64,000 nucleotides of DNA, from NCBI GenBank assembly GCA_937891595.1, contig CALATF010000052.1, positions 17,921 to 81,920 on the forward strand, read 5' to 3'. Numbering within the stretch: position 1 is the first letter of the stretch; the number at the start of each line of letters is the position of its first letter. Origin of the DNA: an uncultured Clostridia bacterium. Its GTDB lineage: Bacteria; Bacillota; Clostridia; Christensenellales; UBA1242. Shown piece after piece: positions 4,825 to 56,799 of this stretch. The translations under genes were made by a program, and so were the position numbers. The notes below the pieces were generated by a model that ran no database searches, had not been told where the DNA came from, and saw only the letters and a list, made by a program, of their open reading frames with translations.

Positions 4825-4998
4825 AAAACACCTTTACAAAATAATTATATCAAAAATCTTTTCAAAATAAAAACTAATTTTGCAAATTTTATAATATTAA
4901 TATATGTTAAGAGCTTTGTACTTAATTCATGAGTTATACACAAATTTATTAAAAATGTGGAAAACTAAAAAATAAAGCAGAAAAATTTTTCTGCTTTT

Positions 4999-7597: not shown

Positions 7598-8140
7598 TTA
7601 AAAATCAATTTGCTCTACGTCACCGTTTTTCATTACTTTATAATTTTCTGTTCTAACAAGAACAGGCCTGTTTCTGTCTTCTTTATTTTTAGATAAAAGA
7701 TTTCTTAAATATTTAAGAACTTCACCATGCCCAACAATTAAAATATTTTTGCCTTTATATTCTTCTAAGTCTTTTAAAAAACTACTAACACGAATATAAA
7801 CATCTTCATCTGTTTCGCCATTAAATTTATGAGGGTCTTTAAAAAATTCATCATATTTCCATTGTGGATTCTTAGTTCCTTCCAAGTCACCCTTAGCAAC
7901 TTCCATTAAACGTTTGTCTGTATGTAAGTCTAAATTATGATACTCTAAAATATATTCTGCCGTTTGCGTAGCCCTGTTAAGTGGAGAAGATACAACATAA
8001 TCAAATTTATAATCTTTTAGTTTTTCTGCAATCTCTTTTGCTTGCTTTAATCCTGTTTTATTTAAAGATGTATTAAGTTGTCCTTGGCTTACATTAAACA
8101 AATTAAAATCTGTTTCGCCATGCCTTACATAATAAATCAT
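7598..8140 (-). CDS. Histidine phosphatase family protein (phosphoglycerate-mutase-like)
   Basis: 180 aa with RHGETDFN near the N-terminus and a later GHGEV motif. Confidence 0.8.
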   Translation of the reverse strand: MIYYVRHGETDFNLFNVSQGQLNTSLNKTGLKQAKEIAEKLKDYKFDYVVSSPLNRATQTAEYILEYHNLDLHTDKRLMEVAKGDLEGTKNPQWKYDEFFKDPHKFNGETDEDVYIRVSSFLKDLEEYKGKNILIVGHGEVLKYLRNLLSKNKEDRNRPVLVRTENYKVMKNGDVEQIDF

Positions 8141-8158: not shown

Positions 8159-9520
8159 TTATTTTCCCAAACAAAACTTAGAAAATATCCTATCAATAAT
8201 TTTTTCGCTTGCACTTTCGCCAGTTATTTCTCCAAGCTTTTCCCAAATTGTTTTTACATCTAGCGCAGTGCAATCAAGTGGCATATCTAAAATATTTAAA
8301 AGAGTAGAACTTAATAAATTTTTACTTTCTTTTAAAACTTCCACATGTCTGGTGTTGGTTAAAATAATACTATTACTTGTATCGCAGTTGTTTAGTGTCA
8401 AATTATAAATTTGTTGTTTAAGCTGTTCGGTATTAATTTTTTCTTTTGCACTTATTTTAATACATTCACCATCAAAATTCCACTTAGCCGGCAAATCGCA
8501 TTTGTTTAAAACAACTATAGATTTTTTATCTTTAATAATTTCTAAGTTTTCTCTGTCTTGTTCGTTTAAATCTCTTGAACTATCTAAAACTAACAAAACA
8601 ATATCACTGTTTTCCAAAGTTTTTTTAGCTTTTTCAATTCCTATGTTTTCAACTTTGTCATCTGTTTTTCTAATACCTGCAGTATCAAAGAAATTGTATA
8701 CAATTCCATTATATTCAATGCTACCAGTAACAATATCTCTTGTAGTACCTTCAATGTCTGAAATAATAGCTTGGTCATAATTTAACAATGCGTTTAACAA
8801 ACTACTTTTACCAACATTTGTTTTTCCAACAATAGCTACGTTTATTCCTGATTTAATTATTTTACCTTGATGTTCAGTTTTTAGTAAATTACCAATTTTT
8901 GAAAGTAAATTTTCTAGCCTAGCTTTTATACTTTCTTTTGTTTCATATTCAATATCATGTTCAGGATAATCTAAGTTAACTTCTATTTCTGAAATAACAT
9001 CAGTTAATATGTTTTGAAAATCAACAACAGTTTTATATAAATTACCATTAGTAAGTTCATTGCTAGCTTTTAATTGACTTTCTGTTTCGGAATTAATAGT
9101 GTCTATTATTCCTTCAGCTTGGTCAAGAGACATCTTCCCGTTTAAAAAAGCCCTTTTTGAAAATTCACCTGGTTGAGCAAGTCTTGCACCAAACTTTAAG
9201 CATTGTTCAATAATTTTTTTACTTACAGCTAACCCGCCATGACATTGAAATTCTACTACATCTTCGCCTGTAAATGAACGTGGTGCTTTAAAATAAACAC
9301 ATAATCCCTTATCATAAATATCGCCTAAATTAATTTTACCTAAGTACATGTAATTTGGCATAGGATTTTCAAATTTACTGCAACAAAAAATTTGTTTGGC
9401 AACATCCAAACTATTTTTTCCACTTATTCTAATAATACCAATACCACTTTTGCCATTAGGCGTGGCTTGTGCAATAATTGTGTCTTCAAGCATGAAAATA
9501 TTATAGCACATAACTTTCAA
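8159..9520 (-). CDS. mnmE: tRNA modification GTPase MnmE (TrmE)
   Basis: G-domain motifs GKTNVGKSSLLNAL, DTAGIR and NKCD, plus the C-terminal CLGK. The start is ambiguous: TTG 9520, ATG 9511, or ATG 9493 giving MLEDTIIAQATP.. Confidence 0.93.
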   Translation of the reverse strand: MKVMCYNIFMLEDTIIAQATPNGKSGIGIIRISGKNSLDVAKQIFCCSKFENPMPNYMYLGKINLGDIYDKGLCVYFKAPRSFTGEDVVEFQCHGGLAVSKKIIEQCLKFGARLAQPGEFSKRAFLNGKMSLDQAEGIIDTINSETESQLKASNELTNGNLYKTVVDFQNILTDVISEIEVNLDYPEHDIEYETKESIKARLENLLSKIGNLLKTEHQGKIIKSGINVAIVGKTNVGKSSLLNALLNYDQAIISDIEGTTRDIVTGSIEYNGIVYNFFDTAGIRKTDDKVENIGIEKAKKTLENSDIVLLVLDSSRDLNEQDRENLEIIKDKKSIVVLNKCDLPAKWNFDGECIKISAKEKINTEQLKQQIYNLTLNNCDTSNSIILTNTRHVEVLKESKNLLSSTLLNILDMPLDCTALDVKTIWEKLGEITGESASEKIIDRIFSKFCLGK

Positions 9521-13712: not shown

Positions 13713-13800
13713 ATATTTTTCCTTTTAATTCAACTAAAATAGTGTATCATAGCTTTTTAAAAATATATATAGTCAGTTTGCACATATTTTTATTTTTTTA

Positions 13801-13832
13801 TTATCCACAAACACTTAACTAAATGTGGATAA
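13801..13832. promoter_or_regulatory. Convergent pair of perfect DnaA boxes (TTATCCACA-N14-TGTGGATAA)
   Basis: TTATCCACA at 13801-13809 and TGTGGATAA at 13824-13832. Confidence 0.8.
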
Positions 13833-13860
13833 TATCCTTTGTTTTAGCGACATATAACTA

Positions 13861-14132
13861 TTTTTTAATAAATAAATATTTAAAAATAAAAAATATAATT
13901 TTTTTAAATTCTATTATTAAATTTTTTATATTAAATTATAAATTAATTAATAATATAATATAATAAAAAAATAAAATTTTTTAATTTTTTTTCATAAAAA
14001 TAATACTTTATTATAATTTAATAAATAATATAGTTGTTTATAATTTTTTTCGTAATTTTTTAACGTAAAAAGAAAAAAATTTTTATAATATATTAATTAA
14101 TAAAATAATTTTATGTTTTAAAAAAAATAATA
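13861..14132. other. Extreme A+T tract (candidate DNA-unwinding region)
   Basis: I count 11 G/C in 272 nt (~96% A+T). It lies directly beside the DnaA-box pair and downstream of dnaN. Confidence 0.4.
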
Positions 14133-14171
14133 AAAAAAACAACCCGATTAGGTTGCTTTTTTATTTAAATT

Positions 14172-15328: not shown

Positions 15329-15558
15329 TGTGAATAACCTTTTTTTTAACAAAATGTTGTGTTTTTATTTTAGCACAAATTTCAAAAAACTCAATATGTT
15401 GTTGTGGATAATTTTTTTTAGCAATAATTAAAATTGTTGATAACTTTATCTTTGTTCGACCAAGTGTTCTAAAACACTTTCGCGCGTATTAAATTATTAA
15501 TTTATTAATAATATTAATTATAAAACGTTATTAATAAGCATTGTGAATTTGTGTATAA
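15329..15558. promoter_or_regulatory. DnaA-box cluster in the dnaA-dnaN spacer (oriC part)
   Basis: TGTGGATAA at 15403-15411 is perfect. One-mismatch boxes are TGTGAATAA 15329-15337, TGTTGATAA 15435-15443 and TGTGTATAA 15550-15558. All share the same orientation. Confidence 0.7.
15481..15525. other. GC cluster (CGCGCG) followed by 39 nt of pure A/T: candidate DUE
   Basis: CGCGCG at 15481-15486, then an uninterrupted A/T run at 15487-15525, lying between DnaA boxes. Confidence 0.4.
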
Positions 15559-15668: not shown

Positions 15669-17027
15669 TTAATTGTCAGATTTTATCATAGCGATAATAT
15701 CTTCAATATTTGTTTTTAAAGACCTATCAGTCTTAATGTTTTGTGAAATTTTATCCCTAGCGTGCATAATTGTTGTATGGTCCCTACCACCAAAAGCATT
15801 ACCTATTGTCATTAAAGGAACATCCATAAGTTCTGTAATTAAATAAATACAAATTTGCCTTGGGTCAACAATTTCTTTGTTTTTCTTTTTGCCAACAAGG
15901 TCTGCTTTTTTAACATTGTAATATTTACAAACAGTGTCCATAATCTTTTCGACTGTCAAGTTTTGATTTTGAGTGTTAGCAATATCTTTTAAAGCTTCTT
16001 CAGCTTCAAGCATTGTAGCTTTAGATCTACCTATTAAACTAGAAAGTGAAACAACTTTATTTAAACTACCTTCAAGTTCCCTGATATTTGTATCAATACT
16101 TTCAGCAAGAAATTCTAAAACATCATTTTCAACACTATAATTTTCTATTTCAACTTTCTTTTGTAAAATTGCAAGTCTTGTTTCAAAATCAGGTTTTTGA
16201 ATATCTTGAATCAAACCGCCCGTAAATCTTGATTTTAAACGTTCCTCAAGTGTTTCCATGTTTCTTGGGTGTTTATCAGAAGAAATTACAATTTGTTTGT
16301 CTAATTGATATAAATCATTAAAAGTGTGGAAGAATTCTTCCTGAGTGCTTGTTTTGTTAGAAATAAATTGAATATCATCAACCATTAAAACATCAACATC
16401 TCTATATTTATCTCTAAAAGCTTTATTAGCATTTTCTTTTTTATCTGCTTTTAAAGCTTGGATATAGTCGTTTGTGAATTGTTCACTTGTAACATATAAA
16501 ATTTTTATATTTTTGTTATTTTTTTTAATATAATTACCTATTGCGTGCAATAAGTGAGTTTTTCCTAAACCAACGCCACCGTAAATAAAAAGTGGATTGT
16601 ATTTTTTACCTGGGTTTTCGGCAACACTTCTTGAAGCTGCGTAAACAAATTGATTGCTTTTACCAACAACAAAACTTTCAAATGTGTATTTTTCGTTTAA
16701 TTTGTTTTTATCGTTTAACATGTTATTAGTTTCAATCATGTCCTCAGCTTCTTTAACATCTTCTAAAAAAGCTTCTTTTTCACCTGGTTCTAAAACTAAA
16801 ATATCTTCAATGTTGTCAAAATGTTCTTTAACAACGTTTAATAATTTTTCTTTATGCAATTTTAAAAGTTGATTTTTGTTTGTAGAGGTTGAAGCCAAAA
16901 CAACTAATTTATTTTTATCAACCTTAATAGGCTCTAAAGTTTCAATATATAAATCGTAACTTACTGCAGTTACCAAATTTTCCATTTCTTTTAGAACTTC
17001 ATTCCACCTAGTTAAAAAATTATTCAT
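15669..17027 (-). CDS. dnaA: Chromosomal replication initiator DnaA
   Basis: 452 aa with Walker A GGVGLGKTHLLHAIGN and the C-terminal DNA-binding segment GGRDHTTIMHARDKI. Confidence 0.97.
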   Translation of the reverse strand: MNNFLTRWNEVLKEMENLVTAVSYDLYIETLEPIKVDKNKLVVLASTSTNKNQLLKLHKEKLLNVVKEHFDNIEDILVLEPGEKEAFLEDVKEAEDMIETNNMLNDKNKLNEKYTFESFVVGKSNQFVYAASRSVAENPGKKYNPLFIYGGVGLGKTHLLHAIGNYIKKNNKNIKILYVTSEQFTNDYIQALKADKKENANKAFRDKYRDVDVLMVDDIQFISNKTSTQEEFFHTFNDLYQLDKQIVISSDKHPRNMETLEERLKSRFTGGLIQDIQKPDFETRLAILQKKVEIENYSVENDVLEFLAESIDTNIRELEGSLNKVVSLSSLIGRSKATMLEAEEALKDIANTQNQNLTVEKIMDTVCKYYNVKKADLVGKKKNKEIVDPRQICIYLITELMDVPLMTIGNAFGGRDHTTIMHARDKISQNIKTDRSLKTNIEDIIAMIKSDN

Positions 17028-35493: not shown

Positions 35494-35569
35494 GGGCAAT
35501 TAACTCAGTTGGTAGAGTGTCACTTTGACGTAGTGGAAGTCAGGAGTTCGAGCCTCTTATTGCCCACCA
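35494..35569 (+). tRNA. tRNA-Val (anticodon GAC)
   Basis: Hand-folded cloverleaf: acceptor GGGCAAT/ATTGCCC, D arm ACTC/GAGT, anticodon loop TTGACGT, T arm AGGAG-TTCGAGC-CTCTT, and an encoded CCA. Confidence 0.9.
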
Positions 35570-35576
35570 TTTATTT

Positions 35577-35603
35577 AAGCACCTTTTCTAAGGTGCTTTT
35601 TTG
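35577..35603 (+). terminator. Terminator after tRNA-Val
   Basis: AAGCACCTT TTCT AAGGTGCTT followed by TTTTT. Confidence 0.8.
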
Positions 35604-35748
35604 TTTTATTTACAAATTAAAATATTTTTAATTATAGATAATTAATTATAATTTTTGTAATTTACTTAAAGGGTGTCTTTTGATAAATATTGACAATTTT
35701 ACAATTTTATAGTACAATATAAACATAATACAAAGGGGGGAAATTAAT

Positions 35749-36324
35749 ATGCCAAGAGTATATAATTCAGCAAAAACTGCTTTTTCTACTGTTTTAGAAG
35801 ATAATAAAAACAGGGTAGAAAACGACATGGCTATATATGGTCCTGGAAGTACAAAACTAACAATAATCACAGATAATAGGGGTGAAAGACCAAATTGTTC
35901 TAAGAAAGGACCTATTTCGGAATCAGATGTTTTAGAAGGAACCACCGGTAATGGAATTAATTCTTTTGAAGGTAGAAATTATACACTTACACAATCAGAT
36001 AATTATACCCAATTACTAAAAAGTGCAACAAAAGATGATTTATATTTGTTTGCAACTTTGGCAAACCCAACTATTTTAAATGATGAATCAGTTAAAACAT
36101 CTTTTTATGACAGATTATCTGGTGTTCAAAGTATTGAAATTGCTAAAGTGTTAAATGACAAGGATAGTTGTGACAAATTACTTAAAGAACAAGCTGACGA
36201 AAAAGCTCAATTTGAAGAATTTTTTGGACTAGTAGAAGGTGCTGTAATGGCTCCTCAAAAAGATACTTTTTATCCAAAAGGGCATGACCAAACAGAAGAT
36301 TCTTCACTTGAAATTACACAATAA
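35749..36324 (+). CDS. Hypothetical protein
   Basis: 191 aa with SD AAGGGGGG upstream, no TM segment and no recognised motif. Confidence 0.55.
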   Translation: MPRVYNSAKTAFSTVLEDNKNRVENDMAIYGPGSTKLTIITDNRGERPNCSKKGPISESDVLEGTTGNGINSFEGRNYTLTQSDNYTQLLKSATKDDLYLFATLANPTILNDESVKTSFYDRLSGVQSIEIAKVLNDKDSCDKLLKEQADEKAQFEEFFGLVEGAVMAPQKDTFYPKGHDQTEDSSLEITQ

Positions 36325-38953: not shown

Positions 38954-39904
38954 TTAATCCTTTTTTAAAAACTTTTTTATTGTTTTTATAATTTCTTTAA
39001 CAGGTAAAGTTGTTTCAAATCCTGCTTCTTTTTTATGTCCACCACCACCAAATAACTCAGCAATTTTGTCTGCATTTTCATCATAGTTTGTCATAATTTT
39101 TGCAGTAATATTTTTATTTTGCTTAATTAAAACAACAAAAACATTAATATCAACAATCTTTCTTAATTCTTCTGCAATATGTTTAAAAACAAAGTTTTTA
39201 GTTATAAATTTATATTCGTCTTCTTTTTTATCCACAACAACATAATAACAGCCGTCAAAAGATAATTCGTTAATTGCTTTAGCAAGAGCCTTTGCTTCGT
39301 AAATAGATGTTTCAAAAAGTGTTTTTTTAGTAATGTTAATATAGTCTATTTCATTATTTATAAGTGTTTGAGCTATGCCGAAAGTTTTGTTAGAAATTCT
39401 TCTAGTAAAGCCGTTTGTATCAGTTAAAATTCCTGCATATAAACAGCGACATATTTTTTTTGTTAAATACTTTTCACCATTCAAAACAATTAGATTATAA
39501 ATCATTTCGCAAGTAGAACTTATCCCTGGCTTAGATAAAATATAATTAGATTGTTTTTTGTTGTTTTGGTGATGGTCTATATTAATAGTAAGTTGAGCAT
39601 TTTCAAAATATTTTTCGTAAATACCAAGTCTATTTTTAGTGCTAACATCTAGCGAAATAAACACATATTTTTCTTCATTTATTTTGTCAACTATAAAATT
39701 ATAATCATCTAACCATTTAATAATATCCCTATCTTCAGTAGGCAACAAAACGTAAGCCCTTTTTCCTATTGTGTTCAAATATTCTGCAAGTGCAATGCAT
39801 GAGCATACAGAGTCTTGATCAGGAGTAATGTGGCCTGCCAAGTAAATAGGAGTAGTGCTAGATAATGTTTTTATTAATTTGTTTATTTTTTTATATTCTT
39901 TCAA
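38954..39904 (-). CDS. DHH/DHHA1 phosphoesterase (NrnA-like)
   Basis: GHITPDQDSVCS, IDHHQNN, GILTDTNGF and the DHHA1 motif GGGGHKKEAG. Its start lies 2 nt after the stop of the upstream gene. Confidence 0.85.
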   Translation of the reverse strand: MKEYKKINKLIKTLSSTTPIYLAGHITPDQDSVCSCIALAEYLNTIGKRAYVLLPTEDRDIIKWLDDYNFIVDKINEEKYVFISLDVSTKNRLGIYEKYFENAQLTINIDHHQNNKKQSNYILSKPGISSTCEMIYNLIVLNGEKYLTKKICRCLYAGILTDTNGFTRRISNKTFGIAQTLINNEIDYINITKKTLFETSIYEAKALAKAINELSFDGCYYVVVDKKEDEYKFITKNFVFKHIAEELRKIVDINVFVVLIKQNKNITAKIMTNYDENADKIAELFGGGGHKKEAGFETTLPVKEIIKTIKKFLKKD

Positions 39905-50587: not shown

Positions 50588-50992
50588 TTGCCAAATTCCT
50601 TACTCGCTTACGGTCTTTGTGCCAGAGTTGAAGGTAATATAGGTAGCTTTGTTTTTCTTTCGTTGTTTGCACTTGTTTTTCAAGCCGTTTCAGATTATCA
50701 AATGCACTTATTTAGAAAAAACAAAGATGGTCAAACTTTTATAAAAAATGGACTTTGGAAATACTCAAGACATCCAAATGATTTAGGTGAAATATTAATG
50801 TGGTGGGGAGTAGGCTTATCCGCTTTGTGTACTTTGTGTAACTGGTATTTAGTGTTAGGAGCAACCTTAAATCATCTTTTGTTTTTGTTTGTAAGCATAC
50901 CTCTTGCGGATGGTAAACAATCAAAAAAAGAAGGGTATGCAGAGTATGAAAAAGCAACAAGAAAATTGTTGCCTATAAAAAGGTTTAAATAA
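50588..50992 (+). pseudogene. C-terminal fragment of a DUF1295 / ICMT-like membrane methyltransferase-reductase family gene
   Basis: It carries the family motif GLWKYSRHPNDLGEILMWWG but only ~36 aa precede that region, versus ~150 expected. The ORF-finder start is a TTG with no SD. Confidence 0.5.
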
Positions 50993-51122
50993 GTATAAAC
51001 TCATTATTTATAACTAAGTGAAATTTTTAGACAAAGCAATTTTAAAAATTAATTTAAATTTTGGTTTATTTCATTATCTTTTTTTAATTTTTATATGTAT
51101 AATTACTGAAAAGGATGGCGAA

Positions 51123-52763
51123 ATGGGAATAGAACAAAATATAAGCATATATTGTAAATTAAGAAATCAACAATTTAACAATTATTGTGTACAAAATGGA
51201 TTTCAGGCTGATGCAAAAACAAAGCAATCTTTTTTTGAAATGGAAAGAGAAAAGGTTGATGGGAAACCAAACCCAGTATTTGTAGAAACAATGAAATACG
51301 TTTCTGCATTTACACAGCCAATTCCAAACAAAGTTAATTTGTATTGTATTATTAGAGGACAAGGTTATAAAAGTTATTTATCACAAAATGGATTTCAAGA
51401 TACTCCAGAATCTAAAAATAGTTTTTTCAGTTATGATTTATTGAAACAGGGAGTTCCAAATCCTGAGTTTATAAAATCTATGTCATATGTAGACCTTATG
51501 TCAGATACAAGTGTTCGCAAATGTGCAGAAACCTTTGCGTCTATAAAAAGCAAAGAGTATGAAGAATTTTTATCAGCCAATAAAATGACCGATGGATTAT
51601 ATACTAAAGCAATGTTTTTTACACAAAATAGAGATGCAGCTCTACAACCAAATTCCGATTTTAAACAAGTAATGGAGGCTGTTGTTGTTCTTAGAGAAAA
51701 TTTAACAATAGCTAATAGATATGTACAAGAAAGGCAAGAGGAATATGTTTCTTTTGTTAGGGGAAATGGGCTAGAAAACAACCCAGAATCTGTTGCAAGA
51801 TTTTTTGTAAAGGAAAGAGAAAAAATAGATGGTAAGCCAAACCCAGTCTTCAAAGAAGTAATGGCAAAAATTTCTCAAGAGATGGAAGATCAAAGCTCTT
51901 TTTCTACGCCTAATGCAAATCAACCTTTTACACAAAAAACAGAAAACACACTAACAAATTCAACTCCAGTTACGACAGTACATGAAACCGCTACCAAACC
52001 AGAGCCAGTGGTAGAAGGTTTAAAAGAAAACACAACAAATCAAACTGTAGTGACTAATGCTGTTGTTAAAGATGAAGTTGCTACTCATGGACAACAAAAT
52101 AATAGTCAATTTGTAAATAGCGGGCAAAAAGAGAATACAATAACACCAAGACAAGATTTTAAAAATATGCCCATAGATAAACTTTTAGCATATGTGAGAT
52201 TTGGTATTAATGATAATGGTCCGCATAAAGTACCATATTTATCTGGTGGGATGGGTAGTATTACAGAAGAAGTTATTCCTGCAGCAATGGAGTATTTGTC
52301 AAGAAATCCAAATTTAGCAAGCATAGAATTAAGAGATTTAAATGGAATAAATCTAAATATTACACAAGAAAGTACTTTAGAAGGTTTAGTATCTGAATGG
52401 ACAACAACTATGGATGCTAAAATGGCAGAAGCTCAAGCAAGAAGAGAACAATCTCAAGCAAAAACGGAAGAAACTCAGGTAATACCACAAGAACCGCAGG
52501 TAATAAGTAATAAAACTGAAGAAATATCGCAAGGAACTTCAGTGCTAACCGAAATTGAACCAGTTAATATTCCTATTGAAACAAGAGAAAGATTTGGTGA
52601 GAAATATGATTTAGATGCAATTGCATCTGGACCTAATGCAAATGAAGTATTAAATGATTTGCCTGCTTTTGATAATTTAGCACATGGGCAAGCGATGGTT
52701 GAAGATCAAACCAAATTTATTGATCCAACACTAACACAAACAATTTCAACTACAAATAATTAA
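51123..52763 (+). CDS. Hypothetical protein with four ~60-aa tandem repeats, a T/N/Q-rich linker and an unknown C-terminal domain
   Basis: The repeat signature Y..R...Y..(F/Y)...NG(F/L)......FF..ER(E)K.DGKPNP.F..(V/T)M recurs four times. ATG at 51123 with SD AAAGGA. Confidence 0.6.
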   Translation: MGIEQNISIYCKLRNQQFNNYCVQNGFQADAKTKQSFFEMEREKVDGKPNPVFVETMKYVSAFTQPIPNKVNLYCIIRGQGYKSYLSQNGFQDTPESKNSFFSYDLLKQGVPNPEFIKSMSYVDLMSDTSVRKCAETFASIKSKEYEEFLSANKMTDGLYTKAMFFTQNRDAALQPNSDFKQVMEAVVVLRENLTIANRYVQERQEEYVSFVRGNGLENNPESVARFFVKEREKIDGKPNPVFKEVMAKISQEMEDQSSFSTPNANQPFTQKTENTLTNSTPVTTVHETATKPEPVVEGLKENTTNQTVVTNAVVKDEVATHGQQNNSQFVNSGQKENTITPRQDFKNMPIDKLLAYVRFGINDNGPHKVPYLSGGMGSITEEVIPAAMEYLSRNPNLASIELRDLNGINLNITQESTLEGLVSEWTTTMDAKMAEAQARREQSQAKTEETQVIPQEPQVISNKTEEISQGTSVLTEIEPVNIPIETRERFGEKYDLDAIASGPNANEVLNDLPAFDNLAHGQAMVEDQTKFIDPTLTQTISTTNN

Positions 52764-52843: not shown

Positions 52844-53500
52844 TTATTTCTTAATTAAAAAATCTTTCCAAGAATCGTTTAAATATTTAGTATAATTCTT
52901 TATAGTTATTTCGTTAGGTTTAATTTTTTTTAAATCTGCCCAATTAATAGGGAAGTATATGGTAGCACAATCTCTACATCTTACAGAAAATGGAGCAACG
53001 CAAGTAGACCCTCGATTGTTGCGCAGATAGTCAACAAATATTTTATTTTTTCGTTCTTCCTTTTTTATGTTTGTAGTGAAAGTTTTTGGCCACTTTTTTC
53101 AAGCAATAATGCAACTTGCTTAGATACTTCGTAAAATTCGTTCCAGTCTTTCTTTTTATTTAAAGGAACAACAATGTGATATCCCTTGCCACCACTTGTT
53201 TTTAAAAAGGATTTTAAATTAAGTTCTTCAAGAAGTTGTTTTGTTTTTAATACACCATTACGCAATTTATTTAAAGGCAAATTTTCATCAGGATCAAGAT
53301 CAAAAACCATACATCTGGTTGTTCTAATTTGCGTATTGAACTGCCCCAAACATGAAATTCAATGGTGCCCATTTGCACTTGATATATAAGTTGAGACTGA
53401 GTAGTAATATAAAAATATTCTTCTTTACCATCAAAAAATCCGAACTCCAATAGATTGTTAAAGGTGCTAGGGTTTTTTTGCAGAGTAGAGGGCTATTGAC
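52844..53500 (-). pseudogene. Decayed LigD-type primase-polymerase (NHEJ PolDom / AEP) gene
   Basis: Three reading frames hold consecutive pieces: ..GTIEFHVWGS / VFDLDP..KTSGGKGYHIVVPL.. / ..KIFVDYLRNNRGSTCVAPFSVR... Frameshifts sit at C4 (53344-53347) and T6 (53094-53099), a TAG lies upstream, and the N-terminal ~90 aa are absent. Confidence 0.75.
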
Positions 53501-53511
53501 TCGAACTGAAC

Positions 53512-53583
53512 ATTATTTATGTATTATTATTCAATAAAAATCCACCCGAACCATAATAGTACGGATAGACAAGTTGCTGGCGG
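53512..53583. repeat. tRNA-Ser 3' end plus downstream hairpin (partner of 50487-50553)
   Basis: Aligned by eye to 50487-50553. Shared blocks are AAAAATCCA, TAATAGTA, GGAT.GACAA and TGGCGG. Confidence 0.6.
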
Positions 53584-53665
53584 AGAGGACAAGATTCGAA
53601 CTTGCGGTGGGTTGCCCCACACGCGCTTTCCAAGCGCGCACTTTAGACCACTCGGACACCTCTCC
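53578..53665 (-). tRNA. tRNA-Ser (anticodon GGA)
   Basis: The reverse complement is GGAGAGGTGTCCGAGTGGTCTAAAGTGCGCGCTTGGAAAGCGCGTGTGGGGCAACCCACCGCAAGTTCGAATCTTGTCCTCTCCGCCA, with a long variable arm, discriminator G and an encoded CCA. Confidence 0.92.
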
Positions 53666-53736
53666 ATGATTATAATTTTTTACTTTATGTGAAAGGTTTA
53701 AACTAAAACAATTTATAAAATTAATAATTTAGCAAG

Positions 53737-53776
53737 TTATCCACTTATCCACAAAATATCAATAAATTGTGGATAA
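53737..53776. promoter_or_regulatory. DnaA-box trio: TTATCCACT + TTATCCACA - N14 - TGTGGATAA
   Basis: 53737-53745 has one mismatch, while 53745-53753 and 53768-53776 are perfect. It lies ~70-110 bp upstream of tRNA-Ser. Confidence 0.75.
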
Positions 53777-53863
53777 CTATACTAATTCTTTACCTTTTCA
53801 AAGTAAACTATAGTATTATAGATAATAATTGTACTTTTTGCAATAAAATTTTAATAATAAATT

Positions 53864-54793
53864 TTAATTAATAGACATTAGAAAATCTTCAAAAGCTTCT
53901 TGTTTTTCAGCTGAGGTTTGATTAGATAAAGGTTCTTGATGTGAATTTTCACCACCAAAAAGAATTTCTGTTTCAGATATTTGATATTCTGGAGATATTA
54001 ATTTTTCACAGTTTAACTTATATGCTGTGTAACTTGAGTTAAGAAGTAATTTAGAAACTTGGGTTGGTGTAGCGTCAACATTAAAAGCAAAATTGTCATA
54101 AAATTTAATATTATTATCATACTCAGGTAAAATTTGCTGCCAACTTCTATAAACACCTGTTTGTTTTGCAATATGTTCTAATTCGCAGTTACAAAGTTGT
54201 AAAAAGTAAGGTTTATTAGCTTGTGCTGAATTTTTAACAATATCTTCAAAAGCTCCGCAAGAACGTTGAGCTATAACAAAGTCGTATGGTGTTACATCTG
54301 TTTGTTCATTAAACATGCCGTCAATACCTTTGACATTAAAGTTAGATAAGCAGTCGTTAGAAACAGAAAATTTGTCTATGCTGGAAACATCTTTCATGTG
54401 TCTTGCTATTGAAATTGAAGAATAAGGAACACTACCAGCACCTACTTCAAGCAAAGCTGTGTTTTCTTTGTTAGGTGCAAGTGACATTGCTGTAATAGTG
54501 TAAGCGTCATGTTTTAATGCACATCCAGCTTTAAAAAAGCTATTAAGACTTAAAATAAAATCAGGAACTGCTTTGAAAAAAGAATTACAATCTTCTTCAT
54601 TAGCAAAATTAAAGCAGTCGTGATTACATGTAATAAAATTTAAAAATTCATCAGGAGCTTTTGTAAAATCTTCCGGTGTTTTAATAGCAAAGGTAGAAAA
54701 AGCCTTAAAAATATGATTAAGGTTGAAGTTGTTTTCATTGTATTCTTTAGAATTAATAATTTTTCTTAAAGCAATGCTATCTTTTACTTTCAT
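53864..54793 (-). CDS. Paralog 1 of an uncharacterised two-domain protein (C-terminal Rossmann-like, UPF0146-like)
   Basis: 309 aa. It shares LLEVGAGSVPYSSI, FNVKG, YDFVIAQRSC, NKPYFLQLCNCEL and ILPEYDNNIKFYDNFAFNVD with the next two genes. Confidence 0.65.
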   Translation of the reverse strand: MKVKDSIALRKIINSKEYNENNFNLNHIFKAFSTFAIKTPEDFTKAPDEFLNFITCNHDCFNFANEEDCNSFFKAVPDFILSLNSFFKAGCALKHDAYTITAMSLAPNKENTALLEVGAGSVPYSSISIARHMKDVSSIDKFSVSNDCLSNFNVKGIDGMFNEQTDVTPYDFVIAQRSCGAFEDIVKNSAQANKPYFLQLCNCELEHIAKQTGVYRSWQQILPEYDNNIKFYDNFAFNVDATPTQVSKLLLNSSYTAYKLNCEKLISPEYQISETEILFGGENSHQEPLSNQTSAEKQEAFEDFLMSIN

Positions 54794-54854
54794 TTTTCTT
54801 TTCCTATTGTAATTTTATATCCAAATTTTATTTTGGTCAATATGGCAAATAGAA

Positions 54855-54886
54855 CAAAAAAACAACTTTATTATTTTAAAGTTGTT
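54855..54886 (-). terminator. Terminator between paralogs 2 and 1
   Basis: AACAACTTTA (54861-54870) pairs with TAAAGTTGTT (54877-54886), followed by T6 on the minus strand. Confidence 0.7.
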
Positions 54887-54894
54887 TAATTATA

Positions 54895-55800
54895 TTAAAA
54901 TAATTCGCAAGGTTCTAAACCTAACACTTCTTCAAAGAATTCATGGTTTTCAAATATTGTTTTTAGTAAAAACTCTGTTTGACCATTATCTATAATAGTT
55001 TCTGGAGCACGATGTTCTTCTAAAAGCATACCAACTTGTTCAGGTGTTGCGTCAAGATTAAAAGCAAATTTATGGTAAAATTTAATATCACTATCATATT
55101 CAGGCAAAATTTCATCCCAGCTTCTAAATTTACCTTCTCTTGTAGCAATTTTTCCTAATTCACAACTGCAAAGCTCAATAAAATAAGGTTTGTTAGAGCT
55201 TGAAGCGTTTTTAACTATGCTTTCAATAGCAGTGCAAGGACGTTTTCCAACAATAAAATCATAATTTTCAACATCAGTATTGTCGCTAAAATATTCGTTT
55301 TTGCCTTTAACATTAAATCTGGCAAGGCATTGATTAGATAAATCTAATTTATCCATAGAAGTAACATCATTAAAGTATTTTGCTAAAATAATAGAGCTAA
55401 AAGGCACACCGCCTGCTCCAACATCAAGTAATTTAGTGCTTTCTTTGTTTGGGGCTAAGTCGCTAACAACTTTAGTAAAATAACTAGGTTTAGATTTTTC
55501 AGTATCTTGAACTCTTACATGTAAATCTGCTAAAAATTCAGAGCAGTCGCTAACAAATTCCTCGGAATCTCTTTCGCTTGTAAAATTAATGCAATCAAAA
55601 CTTGAACGAATAGCTTCTAAAAATCCATCAGCTGATTGTTTTATATCTTTTCCATTAAATATTGAAAGGGTAGAGTATATTTTAAACATCTTAGGAATGT
55701 TAAAGCCTTCTTTACTATAATAATTATTTTTTAAAAAATTTCTAAATGTAAAAATATCTTTCATATAAGAAATTCTATCATTAGAACAATAACATTTCAA
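54895..55800 (-). CDS. Paralog 2 of the same family
   Basis: 301 aa. The ORF-track start is TTG; the ATG 12 codons in (MKDIFTFRN) aligns with the start of paralog 1. Confidence 0.65.
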   Translation of the reverse strand: MKCYCSNDRISYMKDIFTFRNFLKNNYYSKEGFNIPKMFKIYSTLSIFNGKDIKQSADGFLEAIRSSFDCINFTSERDSEEFVSDCSEFLADLHVRVQDTEKSKPSYFTKVVSDLAPNKESTKLLDVGAGGVPFSSIILAKYFNDVTSMDKLDLSNQCLARFNVKGKNEYFSDNTDVENYDFIVGKRPCTAIESIVKNASSSNKPYFIELCSCELGKIATREGKFRSWDEILPEYDSDIKFYHKFAFNLDATPEQVGMLLEEHRAPETIIDNGQTEFLLKTIFENHEFFEEVLGLEPCELF

Positions 55801-55875
55801 CTGGTAAAATTGTACAAAAAAAACTAATCAATTTACTAAATTTGTAGATTTTTAAACTATTTTATATAAACATGT

Positions 55876-55900
55876 AAAAAACAACCATAAGTGGTTGTTT
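55876..55900 (-). terminator. Terminator between paralogs 3 and 2
   Basis: ACAACCA TAAG TGGTTGT, followed by a T-run on the minus strand. Confidence 0.65.
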
Positions 55901-55983
55901 TAAAAACCTTGTTCAAACATATCATCAACCATATTATCAATATTTTCTAAATAGTTTTTTTCTTTTAAAATTTGTTAGATTTA

Positions 55984-56799
55984 CTAAAAAAAATCTGGTT
56001 CTAATATTTCAAAAGACTCAATCAAATGTCCTACTAATGAAGGTCTAGTGTCTAAGTTAAATGCAAAGTTTTTGTAAAACTTAATGTCTTTATCATATTC
56101 AGGTAAAATGTCTTCCCATCCTCTATAAATGCCTTCACGTTGTGCTATTTCCGTTAGTTCGCAATTGCATAGTTCAAGAAAATAAGGCTTGTTTGCGCTA
56201 GAAGCATTTTTTACTACGCTCTCAATAGCAGTGCATGGACGTTGACCAACAATAAAGTCATAACCTTCAACGTTTGTATCGTCATCAAAATATTCGCTTC
56301 TACCTGTTACGTTAAAGTTTTCTAAGCAAGGGTTAGATAAAACTAATTTATCCATGGCTGTAACGTTTTTAAATTCTTTGGCTAAAATAATTGAGCTGTG
56401 TGGAATGTCTCCAGAACCAACGTCAAGTATTTTAGTTCTTTCTTTACTAGGGGAAAAAGCTGTAACAAGGTCTGTGTAATATGTGCGAGGCATGCTTGTT
56501 GAAGCTTCAACTTTTTCTCTTAACAAATACATAAATTCTGATAAATCAAAATTAAAAGAGGCTAAATCTTCGGCATTTTGAAAATTTATACAATCGGTAC
56601 ATCTAAGTATAGTGTCTAAAAAATCGCCGGGTGCATTTTTTAAGTCTTCCATATTAGCAATATTGTTAGTAGAATAAGCTTTAAACATTTCTGGAAGATT
56701 AAATCCTTCTTTGCTATAAGCTTTTTCTCTTAATAATTTTCTAAACTCAAATATTTCTTTCATATGCAAAATTTTATCATTATTAAAAACATATTTCAA
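55984..56799 (-). CDS. Paralog 3 of the same family
   Basis: 271 aa, with ILDVGSGDIPHSSI, YDFIVGQRPCTAIESVVKNASSANKPYFLELCNCEL and ILPEYDKDIKFYKNFAFNLD. Confidence 0.65.
   Translation of the reverse strand: MKYVFNNDKILHMKEIFEFRKLLREKAYSKEGFNLPEMFKAYSTNNIANMEDLKNAPGDFLDTILRCTDCINFQNAEDLASFNFDLSEFMYLLREKVEASTSMPRTYYTDLVTAFSPSKERTKILDVGSGDIPHSSIILAKEFKNVTAMDKLVLSNPCLENFNVTGRSEYFDDDTNVEGYDFIVGQRPCTAIESVVKNASSANKPYFLELCNCELTEIAQREGIYRGWEDILPEYDKDIKFYKNFAFNLDTRPSLVGHLIESFEILEPDFF

Follow-up and report, generated by a model that had tools for sequence, protein, structure and literature searches.

A convergent DnaA-box pair in the predicted leader of a tRNA-Ser(GGA) gene from an uncultured Clostridia bacterium: a candidate DnaA-binding site outside the origin

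The sequence analysed in this work, hereafter the window, is a 64,000-nt stretch of DNA from an uncultured Clostridia bacterium with a GC content of about 28% and the standard genetic code. Its gene order is parB-parA-rsmG-mnmG-mnmE-jag-yidC-rnpA, an uncharacterised ORF, dnaN and dnaA on the minus strand, followed by recF and gyrB on the plus strand, and the GC skew changes its sign at about 16-18 kb and not near 53.7 kb. In the origin-proximal operon, a second gene of the His_Phos_1 family is inserted between mnmG and mnmE (7598-8140), the other one being adjacent to the locus described below. The DnaA-box cassette considered here is located about 38-40 kb away from both dnaA/dnaN and the skew minimum, outside oriC but origin-proximal, in the intergenic region between the stop codon of a paralog at 53864 and a tRNA-Ser(GGA) gene at 53665. 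Since this gene is encoded on the minus strand, the boxes lie 72-111 bp upstream of it, in agreement with the approximately 70-110 bp given in the preliminary description of this DNA.

Upstream of the boxes there are three tandem paralogs of 271-309 aa (53864-56799) which belong to no Pfam family and show only a weak nicotianamine-synthase/methyltransferase-like match; their copy number is 3, 2, 2, 1 or 0 in the relatives (L120, L123, L125, L136 and others). The 3′ side of the tRNA carries a frameshifted LigD Prim-Pol pseudogene (53065-53450) and, at 50588-52763, a 581-aa repeat-containing ORF and a truncated DUF1295 gene. In the related contig L120 an SMC_N/AAA_15 gene is found on this side instead, so the region looks like a variable tRNA-associated islet. 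The box site had been placed at the edge of the decayed islet, which does not agree with the map, as the decayed genes sit on the tRNA 3′ side, away from the boxes. The module was also considered as a part of the islet itself, and this was rejected because the islet lies on the tRNA 3′ side and is swapped for another gene in L120 with the boxes retained. The hairpin with a U-run that follows the tRNA was not called by the consensus terminator scan. Elsewhere in the window, the ORF after tRNA-Val(GAC) (35749-36324; region 35494-36324) is about 40% identical to the ORF following tRNA-Ser in L123 and L125.

Table 1 Features of the window that are relevant to the DnaA-box cassette
Feature	Positions	Strand	Remarks
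Degenerate third convergent pair TTATACACA-N13-TGTGGAAAA	4934..4964		between rsmG and parA; one mismatch per box
Origin-associated module copy	13801..13832		downstream of dnaN; borders the AT-richest DNA of the window
Hairpin and U-run after the tRNA, probable terminator	53535..53570	-	-13.9 kcal/mol, z = -2.3
tRNA-Ser(GGA), gene served by the leader	53578..53665	-	tRNA search and Rfam
Predicted 143-nt tRNA-Ser leader holding the box cassette	53666..53808	-	start predicted from P1
3′-proximal arm of the long-range inverted repeat around the cassette	53671..53687		pairs with 53804-53820; perfect core 53679-53686
Third box TTATCCACT, one mismatch	53737..53745	+	reads as an 8-nt tandem duplication; 1-nt overlap
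Perfect DnaA box TTATCCACA, left of the convergent pair	53745..53753	+	invariant in L120 and L125
Possible weak central box TTATTGATA	53757..53765	-	2 bp / 3 bp from the outer boxes
Perfect DnaA box (TGTGGATAA on the plus strand), right of the pair	53768..53776	-	perfect in L120; one mismatch (GGTGGATAA) in L125
5′-proximal arm of the same cassette-bracketing inverted repeat	53804..53820		overlaps the -10 element and the leader start
Predicted promoter P1, TTGCAA-17 nt-TATAAT	53815..53843	-	best sigma-70 match in the region, 10/12

According to the preliminary description, the cassette contains the box TTATCCACA and its reverse complement TGTGGATAA exactly 14 bp apart, which was borne out both by reading of the sequence and by a pattern search; the one-mismatch box sharing 1 nt with the left perfect box was confirmed as well, and the identical box-N14-box pattern reported for 13801-13832 was recovered by the pattern search. 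The 32-nt pattern occurs twice in the window and in none of 100 dinucleotide-preserving shuffles. Perfect TTATCCACA boxes number six against 0.53 expected, clustering at dnaA-dnaN, downstream of dnaN and at 53745-53776, and convergent pairs number three, with none in 200 Markov simulations. The spacer of the cassette possibly includes a weak central box with two mismatches to TTATNCACA and three to TTATCCACA, which would give the double-box arrangement TTATCCACA-AT-TTATTGATA; about 18% of shuffled spacers reach the same level. Two of the earlier remarks need to be amended. No perfect boxes other than these and the one at 15403 had been noticed, whereas a further one is present at 39228-39236, isolated within a DHH/DHHA1-family ORF (38954-39904) and at about the chance level for a window. 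The A-rich spacers of the 53745 and 13801 modules, believed to be loosely similar, share 7 of 14 positions against a background mean of 6.4. The degenerate pair at 4934-4964, flanked by the rsmG terminator on one side and the region upstream of parA on the other, has the structure TTATACACA-AATTTATTAAAAA-TGTGGAAAA; an ATTTATT motif in its spacer is common to the tRNA cassette and the origin module of the related contig L130. The DnaA protein encoded in the window (15669-17027) possesses the GGRDHTT..H DNA-recognition signature, its recognition residues being those discussed for DnaA in PMC2533591.

Downstream of P1, transcription would start near 53808, and the boxes accordingly fall at about +32 to +71 within the predicted leader, just downstream of the predicted promoter. 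A TATAAT located 3-4 nt before the tRNA was tried as its promoter and discarded, since the start would then fall inside the mature tRNA. The P1 block ATTGCAAAAA...TATAAT is kept in L120 and L125, and the identical -35 block ATTGCAAAAA recurs in L129, which has no cassette, so P1 would be the ancestral tRNA promoter. The box start remains at +25 to +33 in the window, L120 and L125 despite indels and an inversion. The gap between the best-matching promoter and the tRNA is about 16-85 nt in the box-less contigs L122, L129, L126 and L123, with the best match of L136 situated further upstream. In all three box-bearing species the cassette is bracketed by inverted repeats (8-17 nt), represented in the window by I2 with 17 nt at 76% and by I11 (TTTACTTT/AAAGTAAA) with 8/8, in L120 by GTTTGAAAGA/TCTTTCAAAC with 10/10, and in L125 by arms of 17 nt at 82%.

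Homologues of the neighbouring paralog and His_Phos_1 genes led to the related contigs, and a tRNA pattern scan added one more. The closest ones, L120/L121, share 88% nucleotide identity with the window over 10.5 kb and carry paralogs and P1 followed by TTATCCAC-TTATCCACA-N13-TGTGGATAA. In L125, the His_Phos_1 protein of which is 82% identical at the amino acid level, paralogs and P1 are followed by TTATCCACA-N14-GGTGGATAA. The more distant L123, L126-128, L129, L136 and L122 have tRNA-Ser(GGA) with a strong promoter-like match but without boxes. The tRNA-Ser gene itself is identical in L120/L121 over the aligned stretches, and L122 has an exact match to its 50-nt 5′ pattern. The box pair is thus found at the same place in two related species and is absent from five more distant ones, most of which have a short leader.

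Across the window, L120 and L125, 17 of the 18 box columns are invariant compared to 36 of 97 columns in the ungapped non-box leader. The adjacent His_Phos_1 gene, compared between the window and L125, is identical at 50% of four-fold sites and 64% of third-codon sites, and at neutral rates of 50-64% the probability of at least 17 of 18 box positions being kept is, by simple arithmetic, about 0.004 or less. Judging by these comparisons, the boxes are genuine, are not a product of chance and have been maintained by selection in related species, so that a DnaA-related function is well supported. Being kept in two relatives against the neutral divergence and absent from five others, the pair can be regarded as a selected, lineage-restricted addition, and the alignments place the cassette as an addition to the ancestral P1-tRNA leader in one subclade. 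Since it is missing from five related species, neither the tRNA nor the control of replication in this lineage would strictly require it.

Two further observations were made in the box-less relatives. In L126-L128 (at about 8600-8930), a second copy of the first 21 nt of tRNA-Ser(GGA), together with the TATAATTT that precedes them, is found about 190 bp upstream of the intact gene, as if an insertion into the tRNA 5′ part had left a scar. In L136, the sequence AGATATCCACA-N13-TGTGGATATCT followed by a T-run is located at 2154-2184 between the 3′ ends of the HTH_3 and DAPDH genes, 4.4 kb from the box-less tRNA-Ser; it may be either a displaced DnaA-box pair or a terminator hairpin.

Comparison of the window with L120 points to an inversion of the whole box cassette between these sister species (53666-53814 in the window and 11010-11161 in L120). 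The third box, which is absent from L125, is found in L120 on the opposite side of the pair relative to the tRNA, and so is a 4-nt flank marker (ATAG/CTAT). Alignment of the window post-box flank with the reverse complement of the L120 pre-box flank gives a score of 26 against 15.5 ± 2.7 for shuffles, 3 of 1000 of which reach it, while the collinear flank alignments of the two cassettes are insignificant. In the origin module, compared between the window and its orthologue in L137, the flanks are collinear (z = 11-16) and the 14-nt spacer is reverse-complemented, with 13 of 14 positions matching in the inverted orientation and 7 of 14 in the direct one. The cassette flip and the spacer flip taken together suggest that palindromic modules undergo loop or cassette inversions. 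Two features of an inverton, the inverted-repeat bracket and the occurrence of both orientations, are present, the latter between species only, and the inversions are taken as events fixed between species.

The exact spacing of 14 bp is not a special signature. The exact TTATCCACA-N14-TGTGGATAA module was searched for in one genome per species and was found in at least 119 species, with a chance expectation of about 9 matches (arithmetic for equal base frequencies). Among the matches listed, dnaA or dnaN is present within the 8-kb locus in 60 of 119 cases and some origin-region gene in 72 of 119, leaving about 40% without any origin marker inside the 8-kb locus. A third box with no more than two mismatches, centred in the spacer at offset 2-3, was detected in 73 of the 120 modules listed (61%) and in 3% of shuffled spacers, so N14 marks the outer pair of a three-box array with a pitch of 11-12 bp. 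It is therefore a generic DnaA-array pitch, and in the sister species L120 the spacing is N13. Such a three-box array agrees with the rule of 2-3 bp between the two boxes described for E. coli (PMC11317965). The cassette resembles the oriC arrays of Clostridia in its identical outer boxes and the 11-12 bp pitch, and differs from them in having no adjacent unwinding element, skew switch or replication genes. Box-N14-box is thus the outer shell of a three-box array and no evidence of copying, which is of help in reading other DnaA-box finds.

For the best explanation of the locus the chances seem evenly balanced: judged from the sequence, the cassette would be a genuine secondary DnaA-binding site which couples DnaA occupancy with tRNA-Ser transcription and also acts as a small origin-proximal sink. 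The module, composed of two convergent consensus boxes, an overlapping near-consensus box and possibly the weak central one, would have been gained by the subclade in the tRNA-Ser(GGA) leader, between the ancestral P1 and the tRNA. DnaA would then sit some 30-70 nt past the predicted transcription start and, with the cassette placed after a conserved tRNA promoter and ahead of the tRNA itself, DnaA on the boxes and transcribing RNA polymerase would have to interfere with each other. The bound protein would serve as a brake on P1 transcription, either a roadblock or an operator (we infer both the direction and the size of the effect), and transcription from the stable-RNA promoter would in turn displace DnaA. 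The cassette tolerates inversion, which argues against a strictly orientation-dependent roadblock. The locus would couple the output of tRNA-Ser with the free DnaA pool, and at about 38-40 kb from dnaA/oriC such a sink would be duplicated soon after initiation. The most likely outcome would be that DnaA damps tRNA-Ser transcription and is itself cleared by it, with a modest sink effect in addition.

Three possibilities had been put forward in the preliminary description. A DnaA-titrating cluster of the B. subtilis type remains viable, as does DnaA-dependent control of the tRNA, which is sharpened by the position of the boxes downstream of a conserved promoter and inside the leader. Control of the paralog array by DnaA is unlikely because the paralogs end upstream of the site and read towards it. 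The third possibility, a relocated origin fragment, is considered below.

Among known systems, ChIP-seq showed that E. coli DnaA binds, at the promoters it regulates, to two boxes separated by 2-3 bp (Stringer 2024, PMC11317965), such double boxes standing in tandem with at least one of them near consensus. The cassette may similarly have a consensus box with a weaker one 2-3 bp away near a predicted promoter; unlike in the double boxes, its putative central box is weak and the strongest partner is the inverted box 13-14 bp away. The DARS core includes oppositely oriented boxes I and II 5 bp apart and a tandem box III (Sugiyama 2019, PMC6868365), and with it the cassette shares three boxes, two of them in opposite orientation, although the opposed boxes are separated by 14 bp (13 bp in L120) and not 5 bp. 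Among the known DnaA-box sites outside the origin, the cassette is a new example, unusual in lying within a tRNA leader.

In B. subtilis, origin-proximal clusters of DnaA boxes regulate neighbouring genes and restrain initiation (PMC2533591, PMC3245932). The cassette is similar to these clusters in consisting of intergenic consensus boxes in a Firmicute, near the origin and beside a gene of the translation apparatus, and the roles proposed here, regulation of a neighbouring gene and restraint of initiation, are the same. It is dissimilar in having 3-4 boxes only, in being found inside a transcribed tRNA leader and in one subclade, and in containing a convergent pair. The density index of Ishikawa equals 0.11 at the site, below the value of A > 0.3 which marks stable DnaA sites in B. 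subtilis (Ishikawa 2007, PMC2533591), and the site falls short of the DBC density of at least four boxes with no more than one mismatch to TTATNCACA. An index of 0.11 was likewise obtained for the origin region of this genome at dnaA-dnaN, which means that the threshold from B. subtilis may not apply here and that the index cannot decide the matter.

It is possible, though not probable, that the cassette is purely a DnaA sink analogous to a B. subtilis DBC or to datA, with its position in the tRNA leader incidental. The short distance from dnaA/dnaN, the position effect known for origin-proximal clusters of this kind (Okumura 2012, PMC3245932), the unconstrained orientation of the cassette and the existence of similar convergent pairs at unrelated intergenic sites (rsmG-parA in the window and HTH_3-DAPDH in L136) are all in line with that. 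On the other hand, three boxes, or four with the weak central one, would hold very few DnaA molecules and, together with the index below 0.3, imply a small titration capacity; the site is missing from most relatives, and the fact that it keeps its place right after P1 in three species points to a connection with that promoter.

The datA locus of E. coli adjoins the glyVXY tRNA operon, and read-through transcription from the tRNA genes modulates it (Kasho 2024, PMC10950094). As with datA, a DnaA-box cluster is tied to a tRNA promoter physically and, as predicted here, transcriptionally, and transcription crosses DnaA-binding DNA. In contrast to the cassette, which is upstream of its tRNA, datA is downstream of the tRNAs, depends on IHF and promotes hydrolysis of ATP on DnaA. 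The cassette belongs to a Firmicute, and nothing indicates that it and datA descend from a common ancestor, the shared trait being adjacency to a tRNA promoter only. It is doubtful, but worth considering, that the locus would be an independently evolved Firmicute counterpart of the datA-glyVXY hub, in which a strong, growth-rate-dependent tRNA promoter fires through high-affinity boxes, stable-RNA synthesis determines the amount of DnaA bound at the origin-proximal sink and DnaA occupancy in turn determines the supply of tRNA-Ser(GGA), and which may also flip via its inverted repeats.

It is unlikely that the cassette is origin DNA that was moved or duplicated and is now neutral or in decay, or that it serves as a second, cryptic origin. 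This reading would account for the box-N14-box pattern, which is the same as at 13801-13832, and for the cassette spacer ATTTATTGATATTT (in the tRNA sense), which is identical at 12 of 14 positions to the spacer of the dnaN-proximal ATTTATTGA module of L130, a level reached by none of 119 unrelated listed spacers; the likeness to L130 can, though, be explained by a shared degenerate central box. It also finds some parallel in the more distant relative L023 (6632-7054; DnaA and DnaN 54% identical), where three perfect boxes downstream of dnaN include an N14 pair 245 bp upstream of another tRNA-Ser gene, tRNA-Ser(CGA). Flank tests against five origin modules (from L023, L130, L133 and L137), however, revealed no similarity beyond the boxes. 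When aligned locally, the intergenic regions around the two modules of the window scored 37 at best, lower than the shuffle mean of 41.7, with no recent duplication seen, and blastn of the AT-rich origin spacers of the window and L130 returned only low-complexity noise in both orientations.

The surroundings of the two modules are also different. The GC content falls to 2-4% over 13850-14050 beside the 13801 module compared to 16-25% around the 53.7-kb site, which has no DUE-like AT-rich block. Downstream of dnaN, both in the window (13713-14171) and in L137 (2882-3287), a terminator is followed by about 300 bp of nearly pure A+T and then by the box pair; in L130 (5108-5683) the box pair (aTATCCACA-N14-TGTGGATAt) comes first, followed by the AT-rich block. 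As for the features of a chromosomal origin, neither an adjoining AT-rich unwinding element nor a switch of GC skew nor replication genes were found at 53.7 kb, and a DnaA-trio (NAN)x3 within 16 bp of a box (BUS, PMC8287927) is present, trivially so in DNA with about 80% A+T. The order gyrB<-recF<-|dnaA->dnaN->ORF->rpmH is common to L130-L135 and L137, that is, to all the relatives examined, so the orientation of dnaA-dnaN is older than the cassette. The suggestion that a fragment of origin DNA was moved by the inversion of dnaA-dnaN is therefore not upheld, as this gene order is shared by all of them and the cassette by one subclade only, with no similarity past the boxes and no extreme AT-rich stretch; besides, the boxes appear to be under selection and not decaying. 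The site is probably neither a relocated origin nor a second origin.

A palindrome acting at the RNA level, i.e. a structured leader or a pre-tRNA processing hairpin in which the match to DnaA boxes would be secondary, is quite unlikely. It is true that the leader folds far better than its shuffles (z = -3.4 and -3.95 for the leader RNAs, the former value for the leader of the window, and -6.3 for the hairpin alone) and that the long-range inverted repeat surrounds the cassette in all three species. The stem, however, consists of 9-mers with the exact DnaA consensus, from which the origin module, not itself transcribed, is also built, the boxes are invariant and hence no compensatory changes were seen, and the third box lies outside the simple palindrome. 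Searches against Rfam at both gathering and relaxed thresholds returned the tRNA only and no other RNA family, and no intrinsic terminator was called in 53300-54100, the palindrome having a loop of 14 nt and no T-run (U-run) after it. With the same boxes forming a non-transcribed module at the origin and no Rfam family matching, an RNA-level role is the less parsimonious explanation. It is very improbable that the cassette is an operator of another dimeric DNA-binding protein or a recombinase-flipped invertible switch, for although it is palindromic, inverted between the window and L120 and surrounded by short inverted repeats, with a similar pair found beside an HTH_3 gene in L136, its half-sites are exact DnaA consensus sequences over-represented at the origin, neither a recombinase nor an HTH gene was seen in the ORFs next to the window site, a promoter scan found no promoter inside the flipped segment, and the loop inversion of the origin module shows that flips occur at such palindromes without a special system.

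Returning to the DnaA-binding site within the tRNA-Ser leader, if DnaA does bind there, the locus would represent an initiator site embedded in a tRNA transcription unit of uncultured Clostridia and would provide a link between replication control and translation comparable to that of datA-glyVXY. The relatives described here form a comparative series in which such sites appear to have been gained, moved and flipped among close relatives.
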